Below, one piece after another: positions 1 through 11,972 of a stretch of 11,972 nt of DNA (position 1 is the stretch's first letter; every line of letters begins with the position of its first letter). The DNA lies in the IMG/VR virus record IMGVR_UViG_2713896773_000004, positions 1-11,972 of that record. One strand, given 5' to 3'. This DNA is from a virus. Taxonomy: Duplodnaviria; Heunggongvirae; Uroviricota; Caudoviricetes. A program made the translations under genes and the position numbers. The notes beneath the pieces are model-generated. The model saw nothing but the letters and a program-made list of their open reading frames with translations, was not told where the DNA came from and ran no database searches.

Positions 1-29
1 TTTGAATAACTGAATAAGGTAATAAAACA

Positions 30-494
30 ATGACTCAACATATTGGCGTGAAGCTCATCAATGCTTACCCGATGACCCGTCTGGCATATAACGACTTTCG
101 TGGTTGGGAGTTACCAAGTGACGAAAACGGAAGTGATGAAGGTTATCTCGTCGAGTATCTGGATGGCGGAAAGCCAAACACCGATCGCTTCAACGGGTAT
201 GTGAGCTGGAGTCCGAAAGATGTGTTCGACAAAGCCTACCGACCAGTGGCGGGGCTTAGCTTCGGACTGGCTGTCGAAGCCCTGAAATCAGGCAAGCGTG
301 TCACCCGCGCAGGCTGGAACGGCAAGGGCCTGTGGCTTGAGCTGGTCCAGCAGTCGCCATCTGTGGACCTGCCGTACATTCGTTTAATTTATCCTGTGCC
401 GGGCAATGGTGCTATGCCATACCCAAATGGCGCTCGCGTGCCTTGGGCACCAAGCCAAACCGACGTCTTGGCTGATGACTGGCAAATTCTCTAA
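30..494 (+). CDS. Two-domain phage accessory protein; C-terminal DUF2829-like (Tad2-like) domain, N-terminal uncharacterised domain
   Basis: 154-aa ORF with ATG at 30 downstream of AAGG. C-terminal half has the motif series FGLAVEALKSGKRVTRAGWNGKG ... VPWAPSQTDVLADDWQIL, which I recognise from memory as the DUF2829 pattern (FGEAL.ALK.GK.V.R.GWNGK ... PW..SQ.D.LA.DW). N-terminal half (GYLVEYLDG ... YVSWSPKDVFDKAY) looks like a separate domain. No search was run. Confidence 0.55.
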   Translation: MTQHIGVKLINAYPMTRLAYNDFRGWELPSDENGSDEGYLVEYLDGGKPNTDRFNGYVSWSPKDVFDKAYRPVAGLSFGLAVEALKSGKRVTRAGWNGKGLWLELVQQSPSVDLPYIRLIYPVPGNGAMPYPNGARVPWAPSQTDVLADDWQIL

Positions 495-517
495 ACCAGT
501 TGCTTGGGGGGTGGTCT

Positions 518-727
518 ATGCGAGATGACGATTTTCACCATGTGGGCGATGGCCGCGGTAAGCGCCGAGTGTTCGTTAACGGCAACGAGGTCAAGCGCTG
601 CGTATGGGCGGATGTTAAGCGAGGAATAGCATGCTTCTACCCATACCCCATTCGGGTCCATAAGCGAAAGCGCGATGAAGTCTATACCCGCAAACTGCGC
701 GGCGTAATAACCGTCGAATTTATCTAA
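518..727 (+). CDS. Small basic hypothetical phage protein (about 69 aa)
   Basis: ORF in the track as 500..727 (TTG start). I prefer the in-frame ATG at 518, which follows a G-rich Shine-Dalgarno-like run GGGGGGTGG (505-513). Lys/Arg-rich (KRKRDEVYTRKLRG). No family recognised. Followed directly by a terminator. Confidence 0.45.
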   Translation: MRDDDFHHVGDGRGKRRVFVNGNEVKRCVWADVKRGIACFYPYPIRVHKRKRDEVYTRKLRGVITVEFI

Positions 728-728
728 C

Positions 729-753
729 AGGCTGCCTTCGGGTGGCCTTTTTT
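729..753 (+). terminator. Rho-independent terminator (UUCG tetraloop hairpin plus T6)
   Basis: AGGCUGCC-UUCG-GGUGGCCU forms an 8-bp stem with two G-U wobbles, followed by TTTTTT, immediately after the stop at 725-727. Confidence 0.6.
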
Positions 754-834
754 ATGCCTGCCGCTGAGCGGATGCGACGCGGTGACCGGGTCGGATGACC
801 TATTACCAATGGCCGGAAGGCTGGAGCAAAAACA

Positions 835-1587
835 ATGAAACTGAAACTTGATGCTAACGGAAATGTGGTCGTTGAAAACGGTATGCCTGTGTACATCCAT
901 GATGATGGCAAAGAAATCCCGTTCGACGCAGCCGCAGCGATGACCAAAATCACCTCCCTGAATGGTGAAGCTAAAACTCACCGTGAAGCGAAGGAGGCGG
1001 CGGAAGCCAGTCTCGCGAAATTCTCTGGCATCACCGATCCGACCAAGGCGCTCGAAGCCCTGGAGATGATGACCAAAATCGACCAGAAAAAACTGATCGA
1101 CGCTGGCGCTGTTGACCAGGTTAAGGCTGAGATTACCAAGGTATTCCAGCAGCAGCTGGATGAAGCGAACGGCAAGACCAAACAGCTCGAAAGCCAGCTC
1201 TACGACGAGATGATCGGCGGGCGCTTCGGTGGCTCCAAATTCATTTCAGAGAAGATGGCGATCCCGGCTGAGTTCGTGCGTTCCCACTTCGGTCAGAACT
1301 TCAAAATCGAAGACGGCAAAGTCGTGGCGTACGACGGGCAGGGCAACAAGGTGTTCTCTCGCACCAAGCCAGGCGAGTTAGCCAGCTTTGATGAGGCCCT
1401 GGAGTCTCTGGTCGAGTCGCATCCGCAGAAAGATTACATCCTCAAAGCGTCCGGTAACAGCGGCGGCGGTTCTCACCAGTCGCAGCACCAGGCCGGGCAA
1501 AAAACCATGAAACGCGATGCGTTTGATTCCCTGGATAACGCTGGCAAGCAAGCAGCGCTGAAAGACGGCGTCAGCATCGTCGATTAA
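835..1587 (+). CDS. Putative capsid scaffolding protein
   Basis: 250-aa ORF with AGGCTGGAG upstream. Charged, Ala/Lys/Glu-rich, predicted helical/coiled-coil composition, Gly/Ser/Gln-rich linker near the C-terminus. Sits immediately upstream of the major capsid gene with a 17-nt gap, the usual scaffold position. Confidence 0.55.
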   Translation: MKLKLDANGNVVVENGMPVYIHDDGKEIPFDAAAAMTKITSLNGEAKTHREAKEAAEASLAKFSGITDPTKALEALEMMTKIDQKKLIDAGAVDQVKAEITKVFQQQLDEANGKTKQLESQLYDEMIGGRFGGSKFISEKMAIPAEFVRSHFGQNFKIEDGKVVAYDGQGNKVFSRTKPGELASFDEALESLVESHPQKDYILKASGNSGGGSHQSQHQAGQKTMKRDAFDSLDNAGKQAALKDGVSIVD

Positions 1588-1604
1588 ATCGAAAGGAGCC
1601 ATAA

Positions 1605-2744
1605 ATGGCAGGCAATACCCTTACTGGTCTGATCCCGACCATCTATACCGCGCTGTACGTAGTGTCCCGCGAGCAAACTGGTTTTATTCCTGCGGTGGCG
1701 CGTGACGCGAAAGCGGATGCTGCTGCAAAAGACCAGACCGTACGTGCGCCAGTCGCACCTGCAGCCACCACTGAAGATATTGTCCCTGGACCTTCAGCGC
1801 CTAATTCTGGCGACCAGACCATCGGTGGTGTGGATGTCAAAATCACCAAATCCAAAATGGCCCCGGTGAAATGGAATGGTGAAGAGCAATTGGCTCTGGG
1901 CCCGGCTGGTACCTACAACACCATCCTGGCTGACCAGTTCAAGCAGGCTTTCCGTGCGCTGGCGAACGAAGTGGATGCGGATCTCGCTGCGCTGTACCTC
2001 AACTCCTCCCGCGCTGTTGGCGCGCCAAAGAATACCCCGTTCAGCATCAAAGACGATCTGACTGATGCTGCGTTGGCGCGTCAAATCCTGACCGATAACG
2101 GTGCGCCGACTACTGATTTGCGTATGGTGCTGGGTGGCGAAGCGATGGCATCCATCCGTGGTAAACAGGCTGTACTCTTCAAAGCGAACGAAGCGGGAAC
2201 CGACCAACTGCTGCGTGAAGGTGTTATCGGTCGCATCATGGGCTTCAACCTCCACGAATCCTTCAGCATCAAGCGTACCGCGAAAAGCGCTGCTGCTGGC
2301 TATAAGGTCAATGGCGCGAAGAAAGAGGGCGATATCATCATCGCTATCTCTGCTGGCACCGGCGGTATTGCTGCAGGTACTGCGGTGAAGTTCGCCGGTG
2401 ATGACAATCAGTATCTGGTCGTTGCGGCTACGTCTTCCACTATCACTATTAGCGCGCCGGGCCTCCGTCAGGATCTGGCAGACCAGGCTGATGTCACTGT
2501 GTTGAGCGAATTTGTACCGAACATGGCGTTTGACCGCGGGGCATTCCTGCTGGCCAGCCGTACCCCGGCGATGCCTGAAGGTGGCGATACTGCTGATGAC
2601 GTCATGAATGTGACCGACCCGGTATCTGGCATCACCTTCCAGGTGGCGCTGTACCGCCAGTACCGTCAGGTGCGTTATGAAGTGGGCCTGGCATGGGGTG
2701 TGGCTGCTGTGGCGCCACGTCATTCCGCCATCATCATGGGTTAA
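1605..2744 (+). CDS. Major capsid (coat) protein, P22 coat-like by motif resemblance
   Basis: 379-aa ORF with strong RBS AAGGAG about 8 nt upstream. Position after the scaffold gene and before connector genes. Segments GDIIIAISAGTGGIAAGTAVKFAGDDNQYLVV and the C-terminal GLAWGVAAVAPRHSAI resemble motifs I recall from P22 gp5-type coat proteins. Followed by a hairpin terminator/attenuator, typical of highly expressed capsid genes. Confidence 0.65.
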   Translation: MAGNTLTGLIPTIYTALYVVSREQTGFIPAVARDAKADAAAKDQTVRAPVAPAATTEDIVPGPSAPNSGDQTIGGVDVKITKSKMAPVKWNGEEQLALGPAGTYNTILADQFKQAFRALANEVDADLAALYLNSSRAVGAPKNTPFSIKDDLTDAALARQILTDNGAPTTDLRMVLGGEAMASIRGKQAVLFKANEAGTDQLLREGVIGRIMGFNLHESFSIKRTAKSAAAGYKVNGAKKEGDIIIAISAGTGGIAAGTAVKFAGDDNQYLVVAATSSTITISAPGLRQDLADQADVTVLSEFVPNMAFDRGAFLLASRTPAMPEGGDTADDVMNVTDPVSGITFQVALYRQYRQVRYEVGLAWGVAAVAPRHSAIIMG

Positions 2745-2748
2745 CCCA

Positions 2749-2770
2749 GGGGGCTTCGGCCCCTTTGTTT
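2749..2770 (+). terminator. Rho-independent terminator/attenuator after the capsid gene
   Basis: GGGGC-UUCG-GCCCC hairpin (2750-2763) followed by TTTGTTTT. Located between the capsid stop (2744) and the next RBS (AGGAGG, 2773-2778). Confidence 0.55.
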
Positions 2771-2782
2771 TCAGGAGGCCCA

Positions 2783-2983
2783 ATGGCCGGATTAACCAAA
2801 GAGCAGAGCGCGCAGCGTGAGGCTGAAAAGCTTGCCGCGCAGAACGGCGCTGAACAAACAGGTATTGAGCTGGTGGCTATGATGCGAGATACCCCGGAGT
2901 TCCCCGGCGGTCCGCTGAGCGCTGAGGTTCACCCTGACGAAGTCGATAACTGGCTGGCGCTGGACTGGCGACTGGAGGAGTAA
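2783..2983 (+). CDS. Small hypothetical head-module protein (66 aa)
   Basis: ORF track gives 2693..2983, but that start overlaps the capsid gene and its terminator. The in-frame ATG at 2783 has a consensus AGGAGG RBS 5 nt upstream. Acidic protein, no family recognised. Confidence 0.55.
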   Translation: MAGLTKEQSAQREAEKLAAQNGAEQTGIELVAMMRDTPEFPGGPLSAEVHPDEVDNWLALDWRLEE

Positions 2984-2985
2984 CT

Positions 2986-3297
2986 GTGAGCGATAAAGAT
3001 ATTGAGCAGGAAATTCAGGCCAAAGGCTTGAACGCGCCGCGCGTTACGCTGGGCGAGTTGAAGGCGAATATTAAGCATGCCGAGATCGTGAAGCACGTAT
3101 CCGTCACCGGGCAGGTGCTTCGCTGGGCGGTCATCACCACTCAAAACGGATTCGCAGTAACAGGGAATCCGTCGTGCTCAGTTTCCTCCGCTAACGACAA
3201 CGCTGAAATTGGCGAGAAAATTGCTATTGAGAACGCCGAAAGCGAGTTGTGGGCGTTGATGGGATATGCGTTAAAGCAGAAGCTTTTCGAAGCCTGA
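2986..3297 (+). CDS. Gp49-like small phage protein (PF13876-like pattern), function unknown
   Basis: 103-aa ORF with GTG start at 2986 preceded by GGAGGAG. Pattern TLGELKANI ... VTGQVLRWAVITTQNGFAVTGNPSCSVSSANDNAEIGEKIAIENAESELWALMGYALK matches my memory of the gp49/gp66-type small phage protein family. Not verified by search. Confidence 0.45.
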   Translation: MSDKDIEQEIQAKGLNAPRVTLGELKANIKHAEIVKHVSVTGQVLRWAVITTQNGFAVTGNPSCSVSSANDNAEIGEKIAIENAESELWALMGYALKQKLFEA

Positions 3298-3310
3298 GAG
3301 GAGCTCTGAG

Positions 3311-3793
3311 ATGATTAATGCCGATCCCCATTCGTCTGACTTCAACAGCTATGCCAGCGTTGGTGATCTGCGCGCGTTCGCTGCGGGGCGCGGATACACC
3401 ATCCCTGCTGAAGATGGCGAATGCAGCCAGATGCTGATGCAGGCAATGGACTTTCTGGAAGGGAAGGCCTGGCGCGGTCAGCGTTCCAGCGCATCACAGC
3501 CTCTATCCTGGCCGCGTTCCGGCGTGCGCTTCGATGGTGTTGACCTGTCGAATGATGCGATTCCACAGCGCCTGATTGATGCTCAATGTCGCCTGGCCAT
3601 CGAATCGCAGGAGATTGACCTCACCCCGTCGGTCGCTGGCGGTGGGGCGGTTACGATGGAGCGCGTCGAGGGTGCGGTAACAGTCCAGTATGAGCCGGGA
3701 ACGAATAAAGCTTCTCCGTCATTCCCATGGTTCTATTCCGCACTGCGCGGGCTTGTAGTGGGCGGCAACCAGGTCCGGGTCGAAAGGGGGTAG
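3311..3793 (+). CDS. Putative head-tail connector / adaptor protein
   Basis: 160-aa ORF with GAGGAG RBS. First of four tightly packed small genes between the capsid and major tail genes, the canonical siphovirus connector/neck block. Assignment is by position and size, not by recognised homology. Confidence 0.4.
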   Translation: MINADPHSSDFNSYASVGDLRAFAAGRGYTIPAEDGECSQMLMQAMDFLEGKAWRGQRSSASQPLSWPRSGVRFDGVDLSNDAIPQRLIDAQCRLAIESQEIDLTPSVAGGGAVTMERVEGAVTVQYEPGTNKASPSFPWFYSALRGLVVGGNQVRVERG

Positions 3794-3794
3794 C

Positions 3795-4148
3795 ATGGCA
3801 ATCGACTATCGCCGCATGCGCGCGACCGCGACCCGACTGCTGACCGAGAACGGGAAGGCATATCAGCTTACCCGCGGCGGCGGCACCATCCGTGACCAGT
3901 TCGGCAAAGAGGTCACCACCCCGGCCATTACCGCGACCGTAACCGGTGTTATCACCGAATACTCCTCCCGCGAAATCGACGGTTCCCTGATCGCCACCGG
4001 CGACAAGAAGCTGGCGGCCACTTTCGAGACGGAAGTGCGCATCGATGACCGCATCGAAATCGACAGCAAAAAGTGGCGCGTGGTACAGCCGAATCCGGTT
4101 AAGCCTGCCGATGTGCTGATCTCCTACAACATCCAGCTGAGGGCGTAA
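3795..4148 (+). CDS. Putative head-tail joining / head closure protein
   Basis: 117-aa ORF starting 2 nt after the previous stop (translational coupling), GGGGG upstream. Position and size fit a head-tail joining protein. Confidence 0.4.
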   Translation: MAIDYRRMRATATRLLTENGKAYQLTRGGGTIRDQFGKEVTTPAITATVTGVITEYSSREIDGSLIATGDKKLAATFETEVRIDDRIEIDSKKWRVVQPNPVKPADVLISYNIQLRA

Positions 4149-4150
4149 CT

Positions 4151-4750
4151 ATGGTGGGGTCTGTTAATCAGCCGTTCCTGGCTGCCATTCAGCTGTTCGT
4201 GGATGGCTCGAAGCAGGAGATGGACGAGGTGGTGCGCCGGACGGGTATTAAAATCCTCGCTCAACTGGTTGAGATGTCCCCGGTGGGCCAACCGGATATC
4301 TGGCAGGTCAACCAGACCGCGACGGCGTACAACACTGCGGTGCGGGAGCATAACGCGACCCTGCGTGATGACCCGGCTAATCTGACCAAATCAGGACGAC
4401 TTAAGCGCGGCCTGCGCGTCAACGACTCGATGGACATCAAAAAGCCTGAGGGCTATGTCGGCGGGCGGTTTAAAAACAACTGGTATGTGGGCTTTGACAG
4501 CCAGCCAAGCCAATCCAACGACACCCCCGACGCTTCCGGCCAGGGTTCCAACTCCCGCGGTCTGGCAGTGCTCGAGGTGTTCCGGGTAGGGCAGGTCAGC
4601 TCGATTTTCTTCACCAATAATCTGCCATATGCGGCAGCACTGGAGAACGGGCATTCCGGCCAGGCACCCGGCGGCATGGTGGGCATCACTGCGCTGGATG
4701 CCGCGCAGTTGTTCCGTGAGGCAATGAGCGAGGTGCGCAATGGCCAGTGA
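4151..4750 (+). CDS. Putative tail completion / neck protein (HK97 gp10-like position)
   Basis: 199-aa ORF starting 3 nt after the previous stop. Third gene of the connector block. Family assignment by synteny only. Confidence 0.4.
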   Translation: MVGSVNQPFLAAIQLFVDGSKQEMDEVVRRTGIKILAQLVEMSPVGQPDIWQVNQTATAYNTAVREHNATLRDDPANLTKSGRLKRGLRVNDSMDIKKPEGYVGGRFKNNWYVGFDSQPSQSNDTPDASGQGSNSRGLAVLEVFRVGQVSSIFFTNNLPYAAALENGHSGQAPGGMVGITALDAAQLFREAMSEVRNGQ

Positions 4751-5189
4751 CCAGTCAATGCGAATTGCTGAACTACTGGAGAGCCGCATTGCGGTTATCT
4801 GCTTATCGCTTGGGCTGCCCGTAGCCTGGCCGAACATACCGTTTACTCCCCCGGATAGCTCACCATACGGGCGTGTTTATGTTCTGCCGGCACAGACGGT
4901 GGGGCAAGACCTGGAAGGTCAATTGCGAACCTATCAGGGCATCCTGCAGCTCAACATCATTGCGCCAGCAGGCAGCGGCGTGACGCAGGCCAGAGGGCTG
5001 GCTAAATCTGTCGCTGATGCATTTCCTGAAGGGCTTGCGCTGGTGGATGGTGACCTGACTGTTTATATCAATGGGCCGCCGCAGGTGAGACAACCCATCC
5101 AGGACCGGCCAACCTCGGCGTCCAACGGGTCCAGTGGCTCCATAACCTACACCATTCCCGTCAGCATGCAGTACCGCGCTGACTACTGA
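4740..5189 (+). CDS. Putative tail terminator protein (gpU-like position)
   Basis: 149-aa ORF whose ATG (4740) overlaps the previous gene by 11 nt (ATGGCCAGTGA). Last small gene before the major tail gene, the position of the tail terminator in lambda-like clusters. Followed by a terminator. Confidence 0.45.
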   Translation: MASDQSMRIAELLESRIAVICLSLGLPVAWPNIPFTPPDSSPYGRVYVLPAQTVGQDLEGQLRTYQGILQLNIIAPAGSGVTQARGLAKSVADAFPEGLALVDGDLTVYINGPPQVRQPIQDRPTSASNGSSGSITYTIPVSMQYRADY

Positions 5190-5212
5190 CCCGCCAGATG
5201 GCGGGTTTTTTA
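5190..5212 (+). terminator. Rho-independent terminator
   Basis: CCCGCC-AGAU-GGCGGG perfect 6-bp hairpin (5190-5205) followed by TTTTTTATT, immediately after the stop at 5187-5189. Confidence 0.65.
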
Positions 5213-5235
5213 TTACCTAAATTCAGGAGAGTGCT

Positions 5236-6168
5236 ATGGCATTCGCAATCCCTAACGGCTCGCGTGTTAACGTGGCCAAGGCCTATCAGGCTCCCATCAC
5301 CTTTACCGCTGCCTCTAACGCTACTGAATGCGAACTGACTGTTGCATCTGCCGCTGGCATCCTGGCGGGCGACGTAGTGCAGGTGAGCTCCGGCTGGCTA
5401 AAACTCGATAATATGGTGCTGCGCGTTAAATCCGTAGCCGGTACCAAAATCGTGCTGGATTCGTTCGATACCTCTGACACCACCAAATTCCCGGCAGGCA
5501 CTGGCGCGGGCACGCTGCGTAAAATCGACACGTGGATCACGATGCCGCAGGTGATGACCCTCTCCACAGAGGGTGGTGACCAGCAGACCATCAGCGTGCA
5601 GTTCCTTGAAGACGATAAGGCCCGTACCATCCCGACCTTCAAAAACGCCGTGGTGCAGGTCTACACCTTCGCGCACGATCCGCTGCTGGCAATTTACAAG
5701 CGTCTGAGTGAACTTGACGAATCCAGCGACACCACTGCTGTGTGGTTCCATAACCCGCGCGGCAAAGCGGACCGTTATTACTCTGCCAAAGTGTCTTTCC
5801 AGAAGGTGCCTAAGACCGAAATCAACGCCGTGGAAAGCAACGAAGCGCGCATGAACTTCGAATCGGATATGCAGATTTACCCGATCGCCGATTCATCCGT
5901 TACGCCGCTGGCGTTCCTGACTGATCTGCCATCAACCAAAGCAGTTAGTGTTGGAGATGCGCTCGATTTAGCCGTCGTTATGCAAGGCGGCTCAGCCCCT
6001 TACACCTACGTGTGGAAGAAAGGAAGCTCCGCAATTCCGGGCAAAACCGCCTCGACGTTCAACATTTCGTCTGTCTCATCCGGTGATGCTGGCGTTTATA
6101 CCTGCGAAGTCACTGACGCCGCAGGCAAGACCCTAACGTCGGCGGCATGCACCGTTACTGTCAGCTAA
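5236..6168 (+). CDS. Major tail (tube) protein with C-terminal Ig-like domain
   Basis: 310-aa ORF with RBS CAGGAGAG. Sits between the tail terminator and the G/GT chaperone, as lambda V does. C-terminal roughly 80 aa (AVSVGDALDLAVVMQGGSAPYTYVWKKGSS ... SGDAGVYTCEVTDAAGKTLTSAACTVTVS) has the Y-x-C and W hallmarks of an Ig-like domain of the kind appended to many phage tail tube and capsid proteins. Confidence 0.7.
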   Translation: MAFAIPNGSRVNVAKAYQAPITFTAASNATECELTVASAAGILAGDVVQVSSGWLKLDNMVLRVKSVAGTKIVLDSFDTSDTTKFPAGTGAGTLRKIDTWITMPQVMTLSTEGGDQQTISVQFLEDDKARTIPTFKNAVVQVYTFAHDPLLAIYKRLSELDESSDTTAVWFHNPRGKADRYYSAKVSFQKVPKTEINAVESNEARMNFESDMQIYPIADSSVTPLAFLTDLPSTKAVSVGDALDLAVVMQGGSAPYTYVWKKGSSAIPGKTASTFNISSVSSGDAGVYTCEVTDAAGKTLTSAACTVTVS

Positions 6169-6175
6169 CCAATCA

Positions 6176-6200
6176 GGCCCGGTTCGCCGGGCTTTATTTC
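6176..6200 (+). terminator. Rho-independent terminator after the major tail gene
   Basis: GCCCGG-UUCG-CCGGGC hairpin (6177-6192) followed by TTTATTTC. Confidence 0.6.
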
Positions 6201-6384
6201 GCAATGAGTACCGCTGGCGAATTTTCTGTATTCGCATTACCCATCTTTTCAAACTGCGCCTTCACACGCGCTCTCTAACCAAGAACCTTTCAGAAAGCGT
6301 TCCTGAGAACTGCCGTTAGTGCCGGTGGGCCTCTTGGGGCGGCTTTTCTGTGTGAACAGGTTCGCTTTTTAAAAGGTACACACC

Positions 6385-6915
6385 ATGAATCACCCAACCG
6401 TCTCAGTGAATGGGGTCTCCGTCCGCGTTGATGACGAAGGCCGGTACAGTCTTAACGATCTTCATGCGGCAGCGGTAGCTAACGGAGAGGCTACTGAGTC
6501 ACAAAGGCCCAGCGTCTTCCTGCGTAGCGCGCAGATCAAACGCTTCGTTAAAGCGCTAAAATCCAAAGCACTAAAAAGTGCTTCGGAACAAAATCAACCA
6601 CTTAAGGTTATAAAAGGCGGTGATCAAAGTGGTGCATGGGGCATTGAACTTCTGGCAATCCGCTATGCCGCCTGGATAAAGCCAGAGTTTGAGATTGAAG
6701 TGTACGAAGTATTTAGAACAGTGGTGCGTCTTGGTATCAGTGCCATGTCCCGCCTGAACAAAATCGACCACATCATCAACACTGAAACCAAGGCAATTAG
6801 CCAGTGTGCCAGCCAAATGGCCAAGTGGGGTGTTGGTGGTCGCAAGCAGCTATTACATGCAGCCCGGGATCGCGTCGCCGACGAAGTCCAGATGTATCTG
6901 CCCGGCATTAACTAA
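6385..6915 (+). CDS. KilA-N domain protein (moron)
   Basis: 176-aa ORF with AAAAGG upstream. N-terminus VSVNGVSVRVDDEGRYSLNDLHAAA ... SVFLRSAQIKRFVKAL ... GAWGIELLAIRYAAWIKPEFEIEVYEVF matches the KilA-N pattern I recall (V..G..IRV...GRYSLNDLH.A ... F.R ... W..P.F). C-terminal roughly 70 aa unrecognised. Lies in a 786-bp gap between the major tail gene and chaperone G, with terminators on both sides. Confidence 0.6.
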   Translation: MNHPTVSVNGVSVRVDDEGRYSLNDLHAAAVANGEATESQRPSVFLRSAQIKRFVKALKSKALKSASEQNQPLKVIKGGDQSGAWGIELLAIRYAAWIKPEFEIEVYEVFRTVVRLGISAMSRLNKIDHIINTETKAISQCASQMAKWGVGGRKQLLHAARDRVADEVQMYLPGIN

Positions 6916-6916
6916 T

Positions 6917-6941
6917 ACCCGCTACGGCGGGTTTCGTTTTT
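6917..6941 (+). terminator. Rho-independent terminator after the KilA-N gene
   Basis: ACCCGC-UACG-GCGGGU hairpin (6917-6932) followed by TTCGTTTTTCT. Stop codon at 6913-6915. Confidence 0.6.
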
Positions 6942-6954
6942 CTAAGGAACCGAA

Positions 6955-7293
6955 ATGACCAAATTCTCCCTGATCCCGAACCCGACCTTCTCCGTTACCG
7001 CCAGCATCCCGCGCGCTGGTGCTGAAGACGGCAAGCTGACCTTTACCTTCCGCCACAAGACACTGGAAGAGCTGCGCTCTATGGATGAAAAGCTGCAAAA
7101 GTCGGCTGAAGGTAAAAAGGCTGCTATCGAGCCGCAGGCCGACTACCTCATGGAAATTGTCGAGGGGTGGGCACTACCTGACGAGTTCACCCGCGACAAC
7201 GTTATTGTCCTTCTTCAGAACTACCCGCGCGCGTTCGACAGCATCGGTCTGGCCTACACCAAAGAGCTGATGGGTATCCGCGAAAAAAACTAA
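6955..7293 (+). CDS. Tail assembly chaperone (lambda gpG-like)
   Basis: 112-aa ORF with AAGGAA RBS, immediately upstream of the tape measure gene. Ends with a slippery heptamer A_AAA_AAC immediately 5' of its stop codon, and the -1 frame continues open to the tape measure start. Confidence 0.65.
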   Translation: MTKFSLIPNPTFSVTASIPRAGAEDGKLTFTFRHKTLEELRSMDEKLQKSAEGKKAAIEPQADYLMEIVEGWALPDEFTRDNVIVLLQNYPRAFDSIGLAYTKELMGIREKN

Positions 7294-7598
7294 GGCAGGT
7301 CGCCGCAGCGTTGTACACGCCGGGACCGACTCTCGCGGAGTTAGCCGCTTTTGGTTTGACGCCTGAGGACGTGGAGGAAGAGGTGGGTATCCTGCCCTCT
7401 GTGTGGAAGTCTTTCACCATCTTCTCTGCCCTGGCAACCCAGTGGCGCGTCGGCGCGAGCGGGGCGACCGGCCTTGATTACAACGTTCTCCCCTGGATGT
7501 TCGAGTTACACGGGGTTGAGGATGCGGCGGCCTGCATGGCTGACCTTCAAATTATGGAAAGCGAGGCTCTCAAGGTAATGCATAAGGAGACGAAATAA
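6955..7598 (+). CDS. Tail assembly chaperone frameshift fusion (gpGT-like), made by -1 programmed ribosomal frameshift at 7284-7290
   Basis: 0-frame codons GAA AAA AAC TAA place the heptamer A_AAA_AAC at 7284-7290. After a -1 slip, reading continues CTA AGG CAG ... (LRQVAAALYTPGPTLAEL...) to the TAA at 7596-7598. This is the same frame as track ORF 7311..7598, which has no credible independent start (TTG, no RBS). Predicted fusion is about 214 aa. Confidence 0.6.
7284..7290 (+). other. -1 programmed ribosomal frameshift slippery heptamer A_AAA_AAC
   Basis: AAAAAAC in X_XXY_YYZ register relative to the G reading frame, directly upstream of the G stop codon. Confidence 0.6.
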
Positions 7599-10500
7599 TG
7601 ACAGACCAGATCGCCTCGATTACTTTGCGGGCCGATGTTTCTGACCTGAAAACAGCCAGCAACGAACTGGATAAACTCGGCCAGGCGGCGGCCGGTGCTG
7701 TAGATAAAGCAGATGATCTGAATAGCGTGTTTCGCGCTGGCGCTGAATCTGCGAAGCAAGGCAGCGAAGGACTCAAGGAGCAGCAGAACGCGCTCAAAGG
7801 GCTGCTGGAGAATATCGACCCGGTTACCAAGGCCTTAAACCGCCTGGATGAGCAGCAAGAATCGCTGCGGAAATTCCAGGCCAAAGGTTTCCTGGATACC
7901 GATACCTTTCAGGCATACAACAAAATCCTGGATGACACCCGCCTCAAGCTGACCGACACCGGAGAAGCCGCGGCGCGCGCTCAGGCTGAATTAGCCGCTA
8001 CCCAGGCGGCAGAAAAGCAGTCCGCAGCGTTAAAGAACCTTCTTGGATCCATCGACCCGACTATCCGCGCGTTCAATTCGTTGGATGAACAGCACGCACA
8101 GCTGGTGGAACATTTCGAAGCTGGGCGCATTAACGGTGCTCAGTTCGAGCACTTCAACACAATCCTTAACCAGACGCGTGAGCGCCTCTCTGGTGTCGCT
8201 GACGTACTACCAGAGGCGCTATCCCGGCAGGAAGCTGCTGCCCGGCGCGCTGGAATCTCCGTTGGTCAGTACAGCGCAGCAATGCGCACGCTTCCGGCGC
8301 AATTCACCGATATCGCCACGCAGCTGGCTGGCGGTCAGTCGCCGTTCCTGATTCTGCTGCAACAGGGCGGGCAGATTAAAGACCAGTTCGGCTCGGTTCA
8401 GGGGGCGCTGTCCGGCGTCGGCGAATACATCCGCAGCATGGCTGGGATGATTAACCCTACCACAATCGCACTTGGTGGGCTGATTGGCACGATCGGCCTG
8501 CTGGCTGCCGCAGCGTATAACTCCTCGGAGCAATTTGAGCAGGTGGCACGCTCTGTCATCATGATGGGTGGGGCTGGCTTCTCCTCAATGCAGCAGCTCA
8601 ACCAGGCCGCTGAGGAAGTGGCTGGCAAGACGAATACATCGATTAGCTCCACCGTCGATACGCTGGTTACGTTGAACGATACTGGCAAATATACCGCAAG
8701 CCAGATGAAGCAGGTCGCAACGACCATCACCCTCATGGGTAAGGCCGGAAATGATACCAAAGCGGCAATAAGCGACTTCGGAAAGATTGTCAGCGATCCG
8801 GTTAAAGGGCTTGCCAGCCTCAATGAACAATATGGTTTCGTTGATGAAGCCATGATCAAGCACATTATCCAGCTACGTAAGCAGAAGGGTGAGCAGGCGG
8901 CTGTTACCGAAGCTATTGAGCTGTTTGCAGGCGTCATGGCAAAGCGCGCAGAGGAGACCAACAAAGCGACCGATAATATCGGTCAAACGTGGGAAAACCT
9001 TAAAAAGAGCGCTTCTGACACCTTTGGCGATATAGGTATTACCGTGCGCGCATGGGGAAACCAGATCATTGATATTTTCGAACTGGTTAAATCCTCGATC
9101 AAAGACTTGTTCCTCAATATCACCTCTCTGGACGCCAAGTTCACCAGCACCATCGCTGGCTGGGCAGACAAAATCCCGGGTGGCGGTGCGCTGGCTAATT
9201 TCCTCGGCATGGACGTTGAGGCAATGAAAAAGGCTGGAGCGGAGGCGGACAAAGAGATTGAGGCGAACAAAAAACGCTATAACGAGCTTTGGAAGCGCGT
9301 CACTGCGCCTAACGCACAGGCAAACTATGAGGCTGAAGCGCGAGGGTCTAACGTAAAAGGTGATGGAGGAACAAGTCGAGAATCAAGAGACGCAGTCTCG
9401 AAGCTTGCACAAGACTCAGACAAAAAGACCAAAGAGGCAAAAGCCACGCTGGATGCTGGCGATCGCACCCTGGAGAACTACCGCGCCCAGGCCAGAACGT
9501 TAACTGAAACGCTCGAGACCCTCCGACAAACAGGCGAAACCCACGCTAAAAACACCGAGTTCAGTAAACAGCAATCTCGATTTGCTGAATTGGATGAGGC
9601 AGCCAAAACCCGCGCGTTGACTGCTCAGGAAAAATCTTTACTGTCGAGCCGTGAGGCGATTCTGAACGCCGCCAAGGTGGTTGATCAGAAGAACAAGGAA
9701 GTAGAGGCGCAGCAGAAGATTAACGGCCTGGCGCAGCAGGCGAATAAATACGTCACGCAGATGTCGGAAAAAACCGATGCATTGCGTGATAGTGTAGGCC
9801 TCAGCAGTCGGCAAACGCAGCGCATGATGGAAGAGGCACAGCTTCGCCAGGGCTGGCTCAACGGTGGCGGTAAGCTTGATGATGCTGGCTATGAGAAAGA
9901 ACTGGCAGCCCTCAGAAATTATTACGCTGAAGAGGATAAGCTGCGCGGCGATTGGAAATCAGGTGCTATCAGCGGCTGGAATGAGTATCTGGACGCTGCC
10001 ACCAATACCTACGATGCCGTGAAGAATGTTGCCAGCTCCACGCTAACAGGCCTGAGCGACATGCTGACCGAGCTCATGACGACCGGCAAAGCATCGGTCA
10101 AAGAGTTCGGCAAATCCATGCTCAAGATGATCCTGGATGTGACGAACCGCCTCATGGTGGCCTACGCGGTGCAAGCTGCTATGGGATGGATCAGTGGGAG
10201 CGCGGGAGGTGGCGCTACACCCGGCGGTGCTTATGCCAATGCGGCCGCTGGTGTAACGTTCAATGCTAAAGGCGGCGTATACGAATCACCCGGCCTCAGT
10301 AAATATGTGAATGGCGTCTACGATTCTCCTCAATATTTCACATTCCAGGGCGCGTCGAAGTTTGCCAAAGGCGGGGTATTCGCTGAGGCAGGGGCTGAGG
10401 CGATCATGCCGCTGACGCGGGATTCTGCTGGTCGGCTTGGTGTCAGGGCGCAAGGCGGGGGCGGTGCGCAGCCTCAGGTCAATATTGATATCTACGTTGA

Positions 10501-10651
10501 TAACAAGGGCAACACATCATCAAATACGTCCGGAGACGGCAGTGCTGCGGCGCGTGCCTTAGGCAAGGAAATTGAAGCAAAGGTTACGGAGATCCTCGTG
10601 AGGGCCGCTCGGAGTGATGGTTTCCTGGGCAAAACGTTCCAACCCAAATAA
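7598..10651 (+). CDS. H: Tail tape measure protein (lambda gpH homologue)
   Basis: 1017-aa ORF whose ATG overlaps the upstream stop (TAATG), RBS AAGGAGA. Segment [53 protein letters not shown] is near-identical to the lambda gpH segment I recall ([49 protein letters not shown]). Also has hydrophobic Gly-rich segments and a Gly/Ala-rich C-terminus typical of tape measure proteins. Confidence 0.9.
   Translation: [1017 protein letters not shown]
7790..8188 (+). repeat. Intragenic tandem duplication in the tape measure N-terminal region (two diverged copies of about 54 aa, period 79 aa)
   Basis: Residues 65-118 ([54 protein letters not shown]) and 144-197 ([54 protein letters not shown]) align without gaps at about 44% identity. 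Nucleotide copies are diverged, sharing short strings such as ATCGACCC. Confidence 0.7.
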
Positions 10652-10693
10652 GAAACTGCTGTGATTCTGAGATGGGAATATCATCTGCACCTG

Positions 10694-10722
10694 GTTACAG
10701 CGACACATCCCTTGGTTATCAT
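10694..10722 (+). promoter_or_regulatory. Candidate sigma70 promoter for the first island gene
   Basis: GTTACA (10694-10699), 17-bp spacer, TATCAT (10717-10722). Predicted start about 10729, upstream of RBS AAGGGG (10742-10747). Pattern match only. Confidence 0.3.
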
Positions 10723-10753
10723 GAGCTAAACCATGCTAATCAAGGGGATGATA

Positions 10754-11128
10754 ATGAAGGCGCTCAAAATTGGCCTTGCAGGGATTGTTGTTATTTACTT
10801 GCTCATCAATGCCAGTAAATCACAAGAGATAAAAAGCGAAGATATACCTGCGTTTGCTAAAAGTGAGTCAAATGTATGGATAGCTAATACACTGGGCCAG
10901 CCGGGCGCAGACGTCATCAAAAGCTCTACCTACTACCTTAAGCGTGAGATTCCAGAAGAGGATATTGTTTATGGCTATCTTTGTGGAACCATAACAACTG
11001 GCGAAAGATTCTTTACTGAGGTCTCGATCAATAAGCGCAAGCACACGTCTGGCATTTTCAAAAATATGATATTTGATAAACGCAATGCAAAGACGTTTAA
11101 TCAGATCTGGAACACTGAGTGTAAGTAA
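10754..11128 (+). CDS. Hypothetical secreted or membrane-anchored protein with N-terminal signal peptide (cargo island gene A)
   Basis: Track ORF 10733..11128. I prefer ATG 10754 (or 10748), 6 nt after AAGGGG. N-terminus MKALKIGLAGIVVIYLLINA-SKSQ has a basic n-region, hydrophobic core and Ala at the putative cleavage site, with no lipobox Cys. Mature part has two Cys. Local GC is about 40%. No family recognised. Confidence 0.55.
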   Translation: MKALKIGLAGIVVIYLLINASKSQEIKSEDIPAFAKSESNVWIANTLGQPGADVIKSSTYYLKREIPEEDIVYGYLCGTITTGERFFTEVSINKRKHTSGIFKNMIFDKRNAKTFNQIWNTECK

Positions 11129-11149
11129 CCATCAAGATCACCCAACACA

Positions 11150-11175
11150 GCCTCGCATACGCGGGGCTTTTTTAT
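11150..11175 (+). terminator. Rho-independent terminator after island gene A
   Basis: GCCUCGC-AUAC-GCGGGGC hairpin (one G-U wobble) at 11150-11167, followed by TTTTTTAT. Confidence 0.6.
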
Positions 11176-11203
11176 ATCTGTAGCCGAGAGGCAGGAGAAC
11201 GTT

Positions 11204-11461
11204 ATGGAAATGACTGTAGGATTCCCTGAAATGGGTTCGCGATTTGAATCTGTAAGCTTCGATCCAGATTTAGAAATTAAAATGATAAAGACTGTCAGAA
11301 CCAAAATTACAGTTTGCAAGCTTGAGCAAATCAATGCGCCTCATGAACTGGTGTTTATCTATCAGGAGGATTTCAATCCAGGCAGCTCTTTTGCCGAAGT
11401 CGAAGCACGCGCCAAAGAATATGCCAGTAAGGCAATTGCCGGATTGAAAACCCCGGCTTAA
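11204..11461 (+). CDS. Hypothetical small acidic protein (cargo island gene B, 85 aa)
   Basis: ORF with AGGAGA RBS 6 nt upstream of ATG 11204. AT-rich codon usage unlike the structural genes. Its stop codon lies in the loop of a hairpin that can terminate the convergent minus-strand gene. No family recognised. Confidence 0.5.
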   Translation: MEMTVGFPEMGSRFESVSFDPDLEIKMIKTVRTKITVCKLEQINAPHELVFIYQEDFNPGSSFAEVEARAKEYASKAIAGLKTPA

Positions 11462-11467
11462 CCGGGG
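11447..11467 (-). terminator. Candidate rho-independent terminator for minus-strand gene C
   Basis: Plus-strand CCCCGG-CTTAA-CCGGGG (11451-11467). On the minus strand the hairpin is followed by UUUU (complement of AAAA 11447-11450), 8 nt downstream of the gene C stop. The U-tract is short, so strength is uncertain. Confidence 0.4.
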
Positions 11468-11474
11468 CAAAGCA

Positions 11475-11705
11475 TTATTTGATGCGATGGTAGATGTTAT
11501 CAGCCCTGGCGTACAATTTGGATACCGCCTCGGCACGACCTTGCTCTTGCATCGTCATTTTTGATGTATCTCCACCGTAGGCCTTCGTCATATACTCAGT
11601 AACGCGCTTGCGAAAAGCTCCAGCATCACCTGATTCGACAGTGGCAACAGCTAATAAAAACGCTAAGGCTTCATCCTGCTGGTCTTCTTTGTTAAAGCTC
11701 ATCAT
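11475..11705 (-). CDS. Hypothetical small protein encoded antisense to the late operon (cargo island gene C, 76 aa)
   Basis: Minus-strand ORF starting ATGATG (complement of 11700-11705) with AGGAG 3 nt upstream (complement of CTCCT 11709-11713). Protein MMSFNKEDQQDEALAFLLAVATVESGDAG..., no family recognised. It is the only credible minus-strand gene in the window. Confidence 0.55.
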   Translation of the reverse strand: MMSFNKEDQQDEALAFLLAVATVESGDAGAFRKRVTEYMTKAYGGDTSKMTMQEQGRAEAVSKLYARADNIYHRIK

Positions 11706-11753
11706 AAACTCCTGTTATACCGAGGCCATCAGCCGCACCGTCGGCAATTAATG

Positions 11754-11774
11754 CGCCAGTGCCCACCACTGGCG
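11754..11774. repeat. Perfect 8-bp inverted repeat with 5-bp spacer upstream of gene C
   Basis: CGCCAGTG-CCCAC-CACTGGCG, located about 50-70 bp upstream of the gene C start codon on the minus strand. Candidate operator or RNA hairpin. Confidence 0.4.
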
Positions 11775-11834
11775 GGCTGAATCCACAACATAACCAGGTA
11801 TTTTGATTTGTAACATCCTGATATTCAGACAGTA

Positions 11835-11857
11835 GCCACCTTCGGGTGGCTTTTTTT
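11835..11857 (+). terminator. Rho-independent terminator (perfect UUCG tetraloop hairpin plus T7) immediately upstream of gene M
   Basis: GCCACC-UUCG-GGUGGC (11835-11850) followed by TTTTTTT (11851-11857). The RBS GGAG and ATG of the next gene follow within 12 nt. Confidence 0.7.
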
Positions 11858-11868
11858 ATGGAGCAAAT

Positions 11869-11972
11869 ATGGCAGTTGAAACATACAGCTGGCGCTCGCA
11901 GCTCGGTGCTGGGGCGATTGAATATAGTCAAACGGTGCGCGCTGCGCAGTTCGGTGATGGCTATGAGCAGGT
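11869..11972 (+). CDS. M: Minor tail protein M (lambda gpM-like), 5' partial, continues beyond the window
   Basis: ATG at 11869 with GGAG 5 nt upstream. Translation MAVETYSWRSQLGAGAIEYSQTVRAAQFGDGYEQ matches the N-terminal pattern of lambda M as I recall it (MKTFRWKVKPGMDVASVPSVRKVRFGDGYSQ), including the FGDGY motif. Truncated by the window end. Confidence 0.7.
   Translation, partial: MAVETYSWRSQLGAGAIEYSQTVRAAQFGDGYEQ

Follow-up and report, generated by a model that had tools for sequence, protein, structure and literature searches.

Near its right end, an 11,972-nucleotide stretch of viral DNA (positions 1 to 11,972 of the IMG/VR record IMGVR_UViG_2713896773_000004, hereafter the window) carries an AT-rich island with three small open reading frames (ORF1 to ORF3), situated between the tape measure gene H and the minor tail gene M. 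We consider this island to be a hypervariable moron locus, sited where the tape measure gene gives way to M in an HK639-like siphophage or prophage of the Enterobacteriaceae, and we would assign a probability of about 0.6 to the whole two-module explanation developed below, including the biochemical functions that we infer for its genes. Two components of this explanation are more secure: the island is almost certainly exchangeable accessory cargo and not virion structure, and it very probably consists of two independent modules, A (10694–11128) with ORF1 and B (approximately 11139–11868) with ORF2 and ORF3. The locus is organized as follows; dN/dS is the ratio of nonsynonymous to synonymous substitution and SD a Shine–Dalgarno sequence.

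7598–10651, + strand: tape measure gene H, with the Pfam domains TMP_2 and Tape_meas_lam_C
10652–11868: the island, 1,217 bases between the tape measure gene and M
10652–10693, + strand: spacer 3′ of the tape measure stop codon
10694–10722, + strand: promoter-like site of ORF1 (−35 GTTACA, 17-nt spacer, −10 TATCAT)
10706–10750, + strand: leader hairpin; the 5′ arm holds the −10 hexamer and the 3′ arm buries the SD AAGGGG (10742–10747)
10754–11128, + strand: ORF1, 124 amino acids, dN/dS 0.07 against one homologue
11139–11175, + strand: inter-slot linker, with a terminator-like hairpin and T-run at 11149–11168
11204–11461, + strand: ORF2, 85 amino acids, dN/dS 0.13–0.19
11451–11467, − strand: ORF3 terminator (stem 11467–11451, CCCCGG-CTTAA-CCGGGG, then TTTT) between the convergent ORF2 and ORF3, the ORF2 stop codon lying in its loop
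11705–11475, − strand: ORF3, 75–76 amino acids, dN/dS 0.02–0.05
11706–11833, − strand: ORF3 5′ region, with an SD (AGGAG), a hairpin (11777–11761) and a promoter-like site
11814–11787, − strand: promoter-like site of ORF3 (−35 GTTACA at 11814–11809, 16 nt, −10 TATGTT at 11792–11787)
11834–11868, + strand: right linker, with a terminator-like hairpin (stem 11834–11851) and T-run at the right edge, together with the SD (GGAG) of M
11869–11972, + strand: minor tail gene M, start only (FGDGYEQ), the gene being cut by the end of the window

The AT-rich character of these approximately 1.2 kb, which the initial annotation of this DNA had estimated from hand counts on sampled blocks, is borne out by a G+C content of 0.444 in 10652–11868 against 0.555 in 1–10651; the minimum among all windows of the same length outside the island is 0.512. 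Its three small ORFs, one of them on the opposite strand, are real genes by their substitution pattern, and the low dN/dS values given above, compared with about 1 or more in shifted frames, indicate that all three are under purifying selection. The candidate promoter, internal terminators and right-edge terminator that had been proposed also have matching signals, at 10694–10722, at 11149–11168 and 11467–11451 (−), and at 11834–11851, respectively.

The argument for a cargo locus comes from the comparison of this junction with those of related phages and prophages. The closest sequenced phage is HK639 (86% over positions 736–10465 of the window), and its H–M junction holds a lipoprotein, a 190-residue protein and a YafO toxin. 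Every HK639-like relative examined has cargo at this site, and Enterobacter prophages hold other combinations. The initial annotation had supposed that in lambda and its close relatives H is followed directly by M; this holds for HK97, which has no insert, but not for the HK639-like lineage. Since the cargo at one and the same junction is wholly different among close relatives, the proposal of a horizontally acquired moron island has stood up well. The same unrelated cargo implies that the three genes are not conserved virion parts; conservation as virion components at this position had been named as a finding that would speak against such an island.

What did not survive is the idea of a single three-gene unit, as the contents of the two slots assort separately. 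ORF1 is paired with homologues of ORF2 and ORF3 (the HK97 genes gp22 and gp23, see below) in L024 and in L027, the latter collinear with the window at 96%; with the 190-residue protein and YafO toxin in L025; and with a 59-residue protein and Fic in L026. Conversely, gp22/gp23 are found in the company of a 137-residue lipoprotein, of a 128-residue membrane protein, or of a 74-residue protein and a Zn-ribbon membrane protein. When the junction is compared with those of its relatives, it is an insert with respect to HK97, the homology with L025 and L026 ends at 11173, and that with L025 resumes at 11836. These breakpoints imply that slot B is bracketed by two short conserved linkers, each containing a terminator. 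The sequence of the inter-slot linker follows ORF1 in L025 and L026 and is also present 5′ of ORF2 behind the 137-residue lipoprotein, the 128-residue protein and a P22-type ant gene. It is plausible that such linkers are anchors for cargo exchange; the cargo would then be swapped by homologous recombination in three conserved linkers, namely the leader, the inter-slot terminator and the right-edge terminator. We have found no description of this two-slot architecture with conserved linkers, nor of gp22/gp23 in three phage architectures.

Module A begins with a leader in which a promoter-like site and a hairpin overlap. The promoter-like site is the second-best sigma-70 match in the window on either strand (position weight matrix score 10.1), and it is kept upstream of the ORF1 homologues, with TATAAT in L005. 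The ORF1 start codon lies 3 nt past the hairpin, which has a predicted folding energy of −19.8 kcal/mol (z = −3.6), and none of 200 shuffled sequences folds as well. Among 47 distinct leaders, standard pairs occupy 89.9% of the pair cells, compared with 28–47% in controls with the partner shifted along; a single pair shows clean covariation (C-G in 22, U-A in 17), and several of the G-U pairs are possible only in + strand RNA. We consider it likely, on this pattern, that the hairpin is a selected RNA structure. It has no counterpart in Rfam: there was no match in 10694–10756, nothing in 10500–11972 came near the gathering threshold, and the terminators and the ORF3 5′ region, like the leader hairpin, have no family in the database.

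The leader is by no means peculiar to ORF1. A first scan of IMG/VR, with the promoter and 5′ arm as the query and the 3′ arm left out, gave 98 matches, approximately 88 of which have a complementary 3′ arm; a second scan, with the hairpin alone, gave 83 full copies on as many viral contigs, with GTTACA in 55 and TTACAT at the same position in 5 more. Behind the leader are at least 10 unrelated ORF families, nearly all with a lipobox, signal peptide or transmembrane N-terminus. Most of these alternative cargos are lipoproteins, and those that match PHROG families have no functional annotation beyond “lipoprotein”. In approximately 75 of the 88 copies the gene immediately 5′ is the tape measure gene or a 74-codon gene that succeeds it, and between 631 and 5,385 nt separate leader and M. 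Nine of the 88 are at the I–J junction, and one, in a P22-like phage, precedes the gene of a DUF6694 lipoprotein. The I–J copies (L030, L053, L056, L067, L069, L070, L093, L094 and L096) precede a lipoprotein of about 160 residues (phrog_8179, function not annotated), and this junction is the site of gp22/gp23 in HK97. We have found no description of the shared promoter and hairpin leader. The motif GTTACA-N10-11-YTGGTTAT is common to the ORF1 site (10694–10719, +) and the ORF3 site (11814–11790, −); it occurs exactly twice in the window with 0 occurrences expected, a statistic biased by the post hoc derivation of the pattern.

The initial annotation held that none of the three proteins matches a family that can be named. 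This is incorrect for two of them, since by sequence ORF2 and ORF3 are the gp22/gp23 cassette of HK97, whose record, NC_002167, labels the genes “moron product” and “reverse moron product”. The two cassettes have 90.3% nucleotide identity over 693 bp, and ORF3 has 93.4% amino acid identity with gp23. The homology spans from just 5′ of the ORF2 SD to the start codon of the next gene, which is M here and J in HK97. Three contexts are represented: H–M in many Enterobacter and E. coli prophages, I–J in HK97, and a position after ant of a P22-like immI region in one contig. In every case examined, a forward gene of 85–96 codons and a reverse gene of 75 codons occur together. A literature search found no paper on the function of HK97 gp22/gp23 or on the “reverse moron”.

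ORF2 is co-oriented with the late operon and lies between two + strand terminators, and there is no strong + strand promoter match for it between 11129 and 11203. Its 12 homologues are conserved in the C-terminal half and variable, with indels, in the N-terminal third; the AlphaFold2 (AF2) model is unusable, with a predicted local distance difference test score (pLDDT) of 44, and there is a weak match to phrog_11851 (E 4.6e-4), a family whose function is not annotated. In HK97, gp22 (L001 6024–6386) is annotated with 120 residues and overlaps gp23, owing to a CAA in place of the TAA stop codon (window 11459–11461); most homologues end at 85–96 residues, and the extension may be non-functional.

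ORF3 is probably a small all-helical protein. The identical protein (P0021) is found on 579 contigs and in 958 collection blocks; phmmer against the full library retrieved only about 7 clusters of small proteins, at 43–50% identity. The family motifs are LAFLLA..MAES and YAKADNIYH.IK, and no relative was found in Pfam or, the family profile included, in the PDB. Its terminator is kept in all six cassettes compared, and the homologous site in HK97 is annotated as a − strand terminator. The 5′ region of ORF3 is conserved in the six cassettes, including the divergent one in L022, and a weak promoter-like site is at the same aligned position in five of them and was read by hand in the sixth, L020. 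Within this region, a 7-bp hairpin (GCCCGCC-AGU-GGUGGGC, 11777–11761, −), whose G-U pairs work only in − strand RNA, is retained in six of six without compensatory changes. Three other candidates in the region were rejected: a structured 5′ untranslated region (fold z = −1.1, zero covariation across the six cassettes); a small upstream ORF, ruled out by a 1-nt indel in L022; and a sigma-54-like sequence (TGGCGC-ATTAA-TTGC, 11758–11744, −), present in four of six cassettes, lost in L020 and L022, and probably there by chance.

Unlike its neighbors, ORF1 belongs to an orphan family that we consider new, on the strength of sequence comparisons. The mechanical ORF opens at 10733, the likely start being the codon at 10754 that follows the SD in the hairpin. 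The N-terminal hydrophobic helix is a signal anchor or a cleavable signal; there is no lipobox, the N-terminus MKALKIGLAGIVVIYLLINASKSQ being without cysteine, while two cysteines are invariant in the family. The AF2 model is a confident one (pLDDT 80.5, predicted template modelling score 0.70), with a helix at 28–46, four strands and a C-terminal helix, and suggests a periplasmic domain with a cystatin-like fold. Foldseek with this model found nothing below E 0.001 in either the PDB or BFVD, and the predicted fold is a lead, not an assignment. The family is small and rare: it has eight close homologues, the named ones from Enterobacter, and is absent from the phage records searched. The exact protein is present in 144 collection blocks, and in all four places examined its gene directly follows the tape measure gene. 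Any kinship with the 128-residue alternative cargo was rejected, BLASTP detecting no similarity.

Inside the 3′ end of ORF1 there is also the best sigma-70-like match of the whole window, TTGATA-17-TTTAAT (11073–11101, +). It lies about 45 nt 5′ of the terminator at 11149–11168, and the two together, within 11073–11176, could yield an RNA of about 65 nt. This site may simply be a chance occurrence in AT-rich coding sequence.

What these genes do can be addressed at present only by their topology, neighborhood and precedents. For ORF1, we tentatively propose, with the odds somewhat against us, a role in immunity or exclusion, exerted in the envelope, because of its predicted topology, because its fold class is common to inhibitors and immunity proteins, because its gene adjoins that of the tape measure and all the alternative cargos are envelope proteins, and because there is the precedent of gp15 of HK97 (PMC3594210). 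It would be made in lysogens from the sigma-70-like promoter and, after the manner of HK97 gp15, Ltp and the colicin M immunity protein (Cmi), would serve as a binding or immunity factor that blocks a component of an incoming phage or a bacteriocin as it reaches the periplasm. The position of the −10 hexamer inside the 5′ arm of the hairpin means that transcripts from this promoter should lack that arm; starting within the loop, they would keep the SD accessible for translation, while late read-through RNA would fold the full hairpin and hide it. The idea that we offer is thus that of a moron in a late operon that is silent in late transcripts yet expressed in lysogens.

We also infer a difference in expression timing for module B. 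ORF3 would be expressed from the prophage, while ORF2, with no promoter-like site and a place between two + strand terminators, would be made only under antiterminated late transcription, which also crosses ORF3 in the antisense direction. On this scheme the two genes would alternate between a lysogenic and a lytic state, and the likeliest role of ORF2 would be to counteract ORF3; as a whole we regard it as doubtful. The alternative occupants of slot B are of toxin type (YafO and Fic), which fits a conflict-related role. In the boldest version the leader would be a portable “transcript-origin switch” for prophage envelope morons and, in addition, gp22/gp23 would be a defence/self-antidote pair, both undescribed: ORF3 would act in lysogens, and ORF2 from late transcripts would shut it off and so avoid self-inhibition on induction. 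That both are correct strikes us as improbable.

Several observations weigh against these readings. ORF1 has no lipobox, whereas most of the alternative cargos have one; the cystatin-like fold is a generic one, and the Foldseek search gave no significant match. Searches with the three proteins turned up no family of defence, toxin or antitoxin proteins. The promoter and terminator assignments are no more than matches to consensus sequences, and the promoter-like site of ORF3 scores poorly (6.1). In 22 of the 83 leader copies the GTTACA −35 is missing and the tape measure stop codon abuts the hairpin, so that there the hairpin cannot serve to tell two transcript origins apart. This promoterless quarter weakens the transcript-origin idea and makes room for the hairpin to act in mRNA stability or in cleavage by RNase III. 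ORF2 and ORF3 are convergent and form no operon, and they do not co-diverge: in L021 (5104–5620) ORF3 is about 99% identical, with 1 nonsynonymous change and a proportion of synonymous differences (pS) of 0.25, while ORF2 is about 58% identical, with 40 such changes and a pS of 0.76. This discordance suggests recombination between the two genes, and such reassortment of alleles argues against a tightly co-evolving protein pair.

The same 22 copies are a point in favor of another account of module A, which we nevertheless think unlikely. Here the cargo proteins, ORF1 included, would be made mainly from the late transcript in lytic growth and, by hiding a receptor or envelope component, would save progeny from being wasted on debris or on cells already infected, as has been proposed for Llp of T5; the hairpin would be an RNase III or stability element of late mRNA, rather than a means of confining expression to lysogens. 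The absence of GTTACA in these copies makes the hairpin a better conserved element than the −35, and the leader module is always in the late tail operon in the same orientation. A stem of about 17 bp, which is the length of this one, is sufficient for an RNase III substrate. However, most copies do have a good promoter-like site with the −10 fixed inside the stem, the base composition and flanking terminators are typical of independently expressed morons, and a hairpin that buries the SD would cut late expression unless it were processed.

For module B, a toxin-antidote or abortive-infection system equivalent to those in the same slot of the relatives would be an alternative to a lysogeny/lysis switch, one protein inhibiting growth and the other neutralizing it. 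The other occupants are indeed two-gene modules with toxin domains (the 190-residue protein with YafO_toxin, the 59-residue protein with Fic), ORF2 and ORF3 are strictly co-inherited, and ORF2 is the faster-evolving of the two, with disorder predicted over most of its length, a frequent trait of antitoxins. Yet the convergent arrangement, the reassortment of alleles and the lack of any match of ORF2 or ORF3 to a toxin, antitoxin or PADLOC model all speak against it, and with no promoter-like site for ORF2 it is hard to see a steady supply of antidote in the lysogen. We judge this to be rather improbable. We give a similarly low chance to the view that ORF1 is a lysogenic-conversion or bacteriocin-immunity factor that helps the host apart from phage exclusion, for example by inhibiting a protease or a colicin M-like toxin in the periplasm: ORF1 has no sequence similarity to Cmi or cystatins, its fold is common to many functions, and its site directly after the tape measure gene, common to many envelope cargos, points instead to a phage-related role. 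Finally, that the three genes are conserved virion or tail-assembly components with an incidental difference in G+C deserves next to no weight, for although they lie inside the tail cluster with ORF1 and ORF2 in late orientation, the comparative data largely refute it: relatives with the same tail hold unrelated genes or other combinations at the junction, gp22/gp23 also occur beside ant in a P22-like phage, the genes are flanked by terminators, and ORF3 is antisense to the operon.

A gene of 70–74 codons is often found between the tape measure gene and the leader (L005 7714–7938, L013 6162–6386, L021 2397–2609), and likewise 5′ of the leader in the P22-like contig. The spacer at 10652–10693 may be a degenerate scar of the 3′ end of the 74-codon gene found in some relatives; its alignment to the end of that gene in L005 and L021 is partial and weak. 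Two mechanical ORFs overlapping the island were set aside: a 48-codon one at 10672–10818 (+), which is probably no gene, and one at 11692–11931 (−), which crosses the terminator and enters M on the wrong strand. As for M itself, the FGDGYEQ is in its N-terminus, and full-length relatives match PF05939 (Phage_min_tail).

Elsewhere in the window there is another variable slot at 6385–6915 (+), between the tail tube gene and the tail assembly chaperone. It encodes a 176-residue KilA-N protein (E 3.8e-15, G+C 0.507), and in relatives it is empty or is occupied by a 226-residue protein or by proteins of 262–320 residues, some with weak matches to Phage_Tail_Tip (PF09327). Some relatives have an extra gene of 249 codons, function not annotated, between the tail genes L and K, and in one E. 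coli prophage the I–J junction holds an IS3-family element; variability was seen among L002, L012, L016, L024, L026 and L027 at the L–K junction and in L002 and L016 at I–J. Near the left end of the window (30–494, +) is a gene for a 154-residue protein whose C-terminal half matches PF11195 (Tad2-like, Thoeris anti-defence 2-like; E 4.6e-20). With the scaffold and P22-type coat genes downstream of it, this may be a head-region gene with an anti-defence role.

Temperate phages house their exclusion, defence and conversion genes in morons, and a feature of this kind is well known; the locus overturns no current views and, though useful, should not surprise a phage genomicist. Its interest lies perhaps in its compact and well-bounded form, with at least 10 unrelated envelope proteins found behind one promoter and hairpin leader right after the tape measure gene, so that the leader provides a sequence handle for harvesting envelope-protein genes from prophages. 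Similarly gp22/gp23, a mobile unit in three phage architectures that has been annotated for 25 years with no functional paper found, would be a reasonable target.

With respect to known systems, the island fits the structural description of a moron (Juhala et al. 2000, restated in PMC3594210), as far as sequence can tell: there is 1.2 kb of extra DNA between genes that are adjacent in HK97, the base composition deviates from that of the flanking genes, and among the flanking signals, which are consensus matches, the terminator-like hairpins are clear, while the promoter-like site is strong and conserved for ORF1, weak for ORF3 and absent for ORF2. Module B has the same constituents as the HK97 cassette, with both genes homologous, the convergent layout, the − and + strand terminators and the ORF3 5′ region; the HK97 version differs in lying between I and J and in being without the upstream terminator linker.

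The initial annotation had placed the cargo in the class that usually encodes superinfection exclusion (Sie), anti-phage defence or toxin-antitoxin functions, and membership in a known family of this class could not be substantiated. Scans of the three proteins against Pfam, PHROGs, PADLOC and NCBIfam gave nothing significant apart from the weak ORF2 match to phrog_11851, PADLOC-DB 2.0 having no family that matched at E values up to 1, and PDB sequence searches with the single proteins gave no match. For a type II toxin-antitoxin system, ORF2 and ORF3 have the wrong, convergent, layout and no Pfam, NCBIfam or PADLOC toxin or antitoxin match. By these comparisons the island belongs to no known defence, toxin-antitoxin or Sie family tested.

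The nearest functional parallel for module B is perhaps Tha/Ith of Staphylococcus prophages, in which a defence gene and an inhibitor transcribed antisense to it switch between lysogeny and lysis (PMC11087260). By analogy, ORF3 and ORF2 might also be a lysogeny-expressed gene and a small opposed counter-gene, with opposing transcription leading to exclusive states. Tha/Ith differs in being located in the lysogeny module, in having a HEPN RNase and in its overlapping genes, whereas ORF2 and ORF3 are convergent and have no HEPN or other recognizable domain.

For ORF1, the comparison is with small envelope proteins. The layout of its model, an N-terminal membrane anchor followed by a periplasmic domain of helix and four-strand sheet, is that of Cmi (PDB 2xgl), but there is no PDB sequence or Pfam match to indicate homology, no colicin gene is nearby, and the fold match is no better than those with eukaryotic cystatins or VirB8. 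The superinfection exclusion due to HK97 gp15 was reportedly the subject of Cumby et al. 2012. Gp15, an inner-membrane protein, is the product of a moron that has a promoter and a terminator of its own and is active in the prophage; the exclusion depends on the tail region of the incoming phage (PMC3594210). Like ORF1, it is a small envelope protein encoded in the tail cluster beside the tape measure gene, with a distinct G+C content; it differs in being encoded upstream of the tape measure gene and in being a YebO-like inner-membrane protein, whereas ORF1 is downstream, is unrelated in sequence and has a predicted folded periplasmic domain. The Sie lipoproteins Ltp (TP-J34), Llp (T5) and Cor (phi80/N15) are likewise small phage envelope proteins encoded near tail or receptor-binding genes, and they block related phages. 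ORF1 has neither their lipobox cysteine nor any detected sequence relationship to them, but the locus as a whole does have a Sie-like trait: most of the alternative cargos behind the leader, from PHROG families that lack a known function, are themselves lipoproteins.

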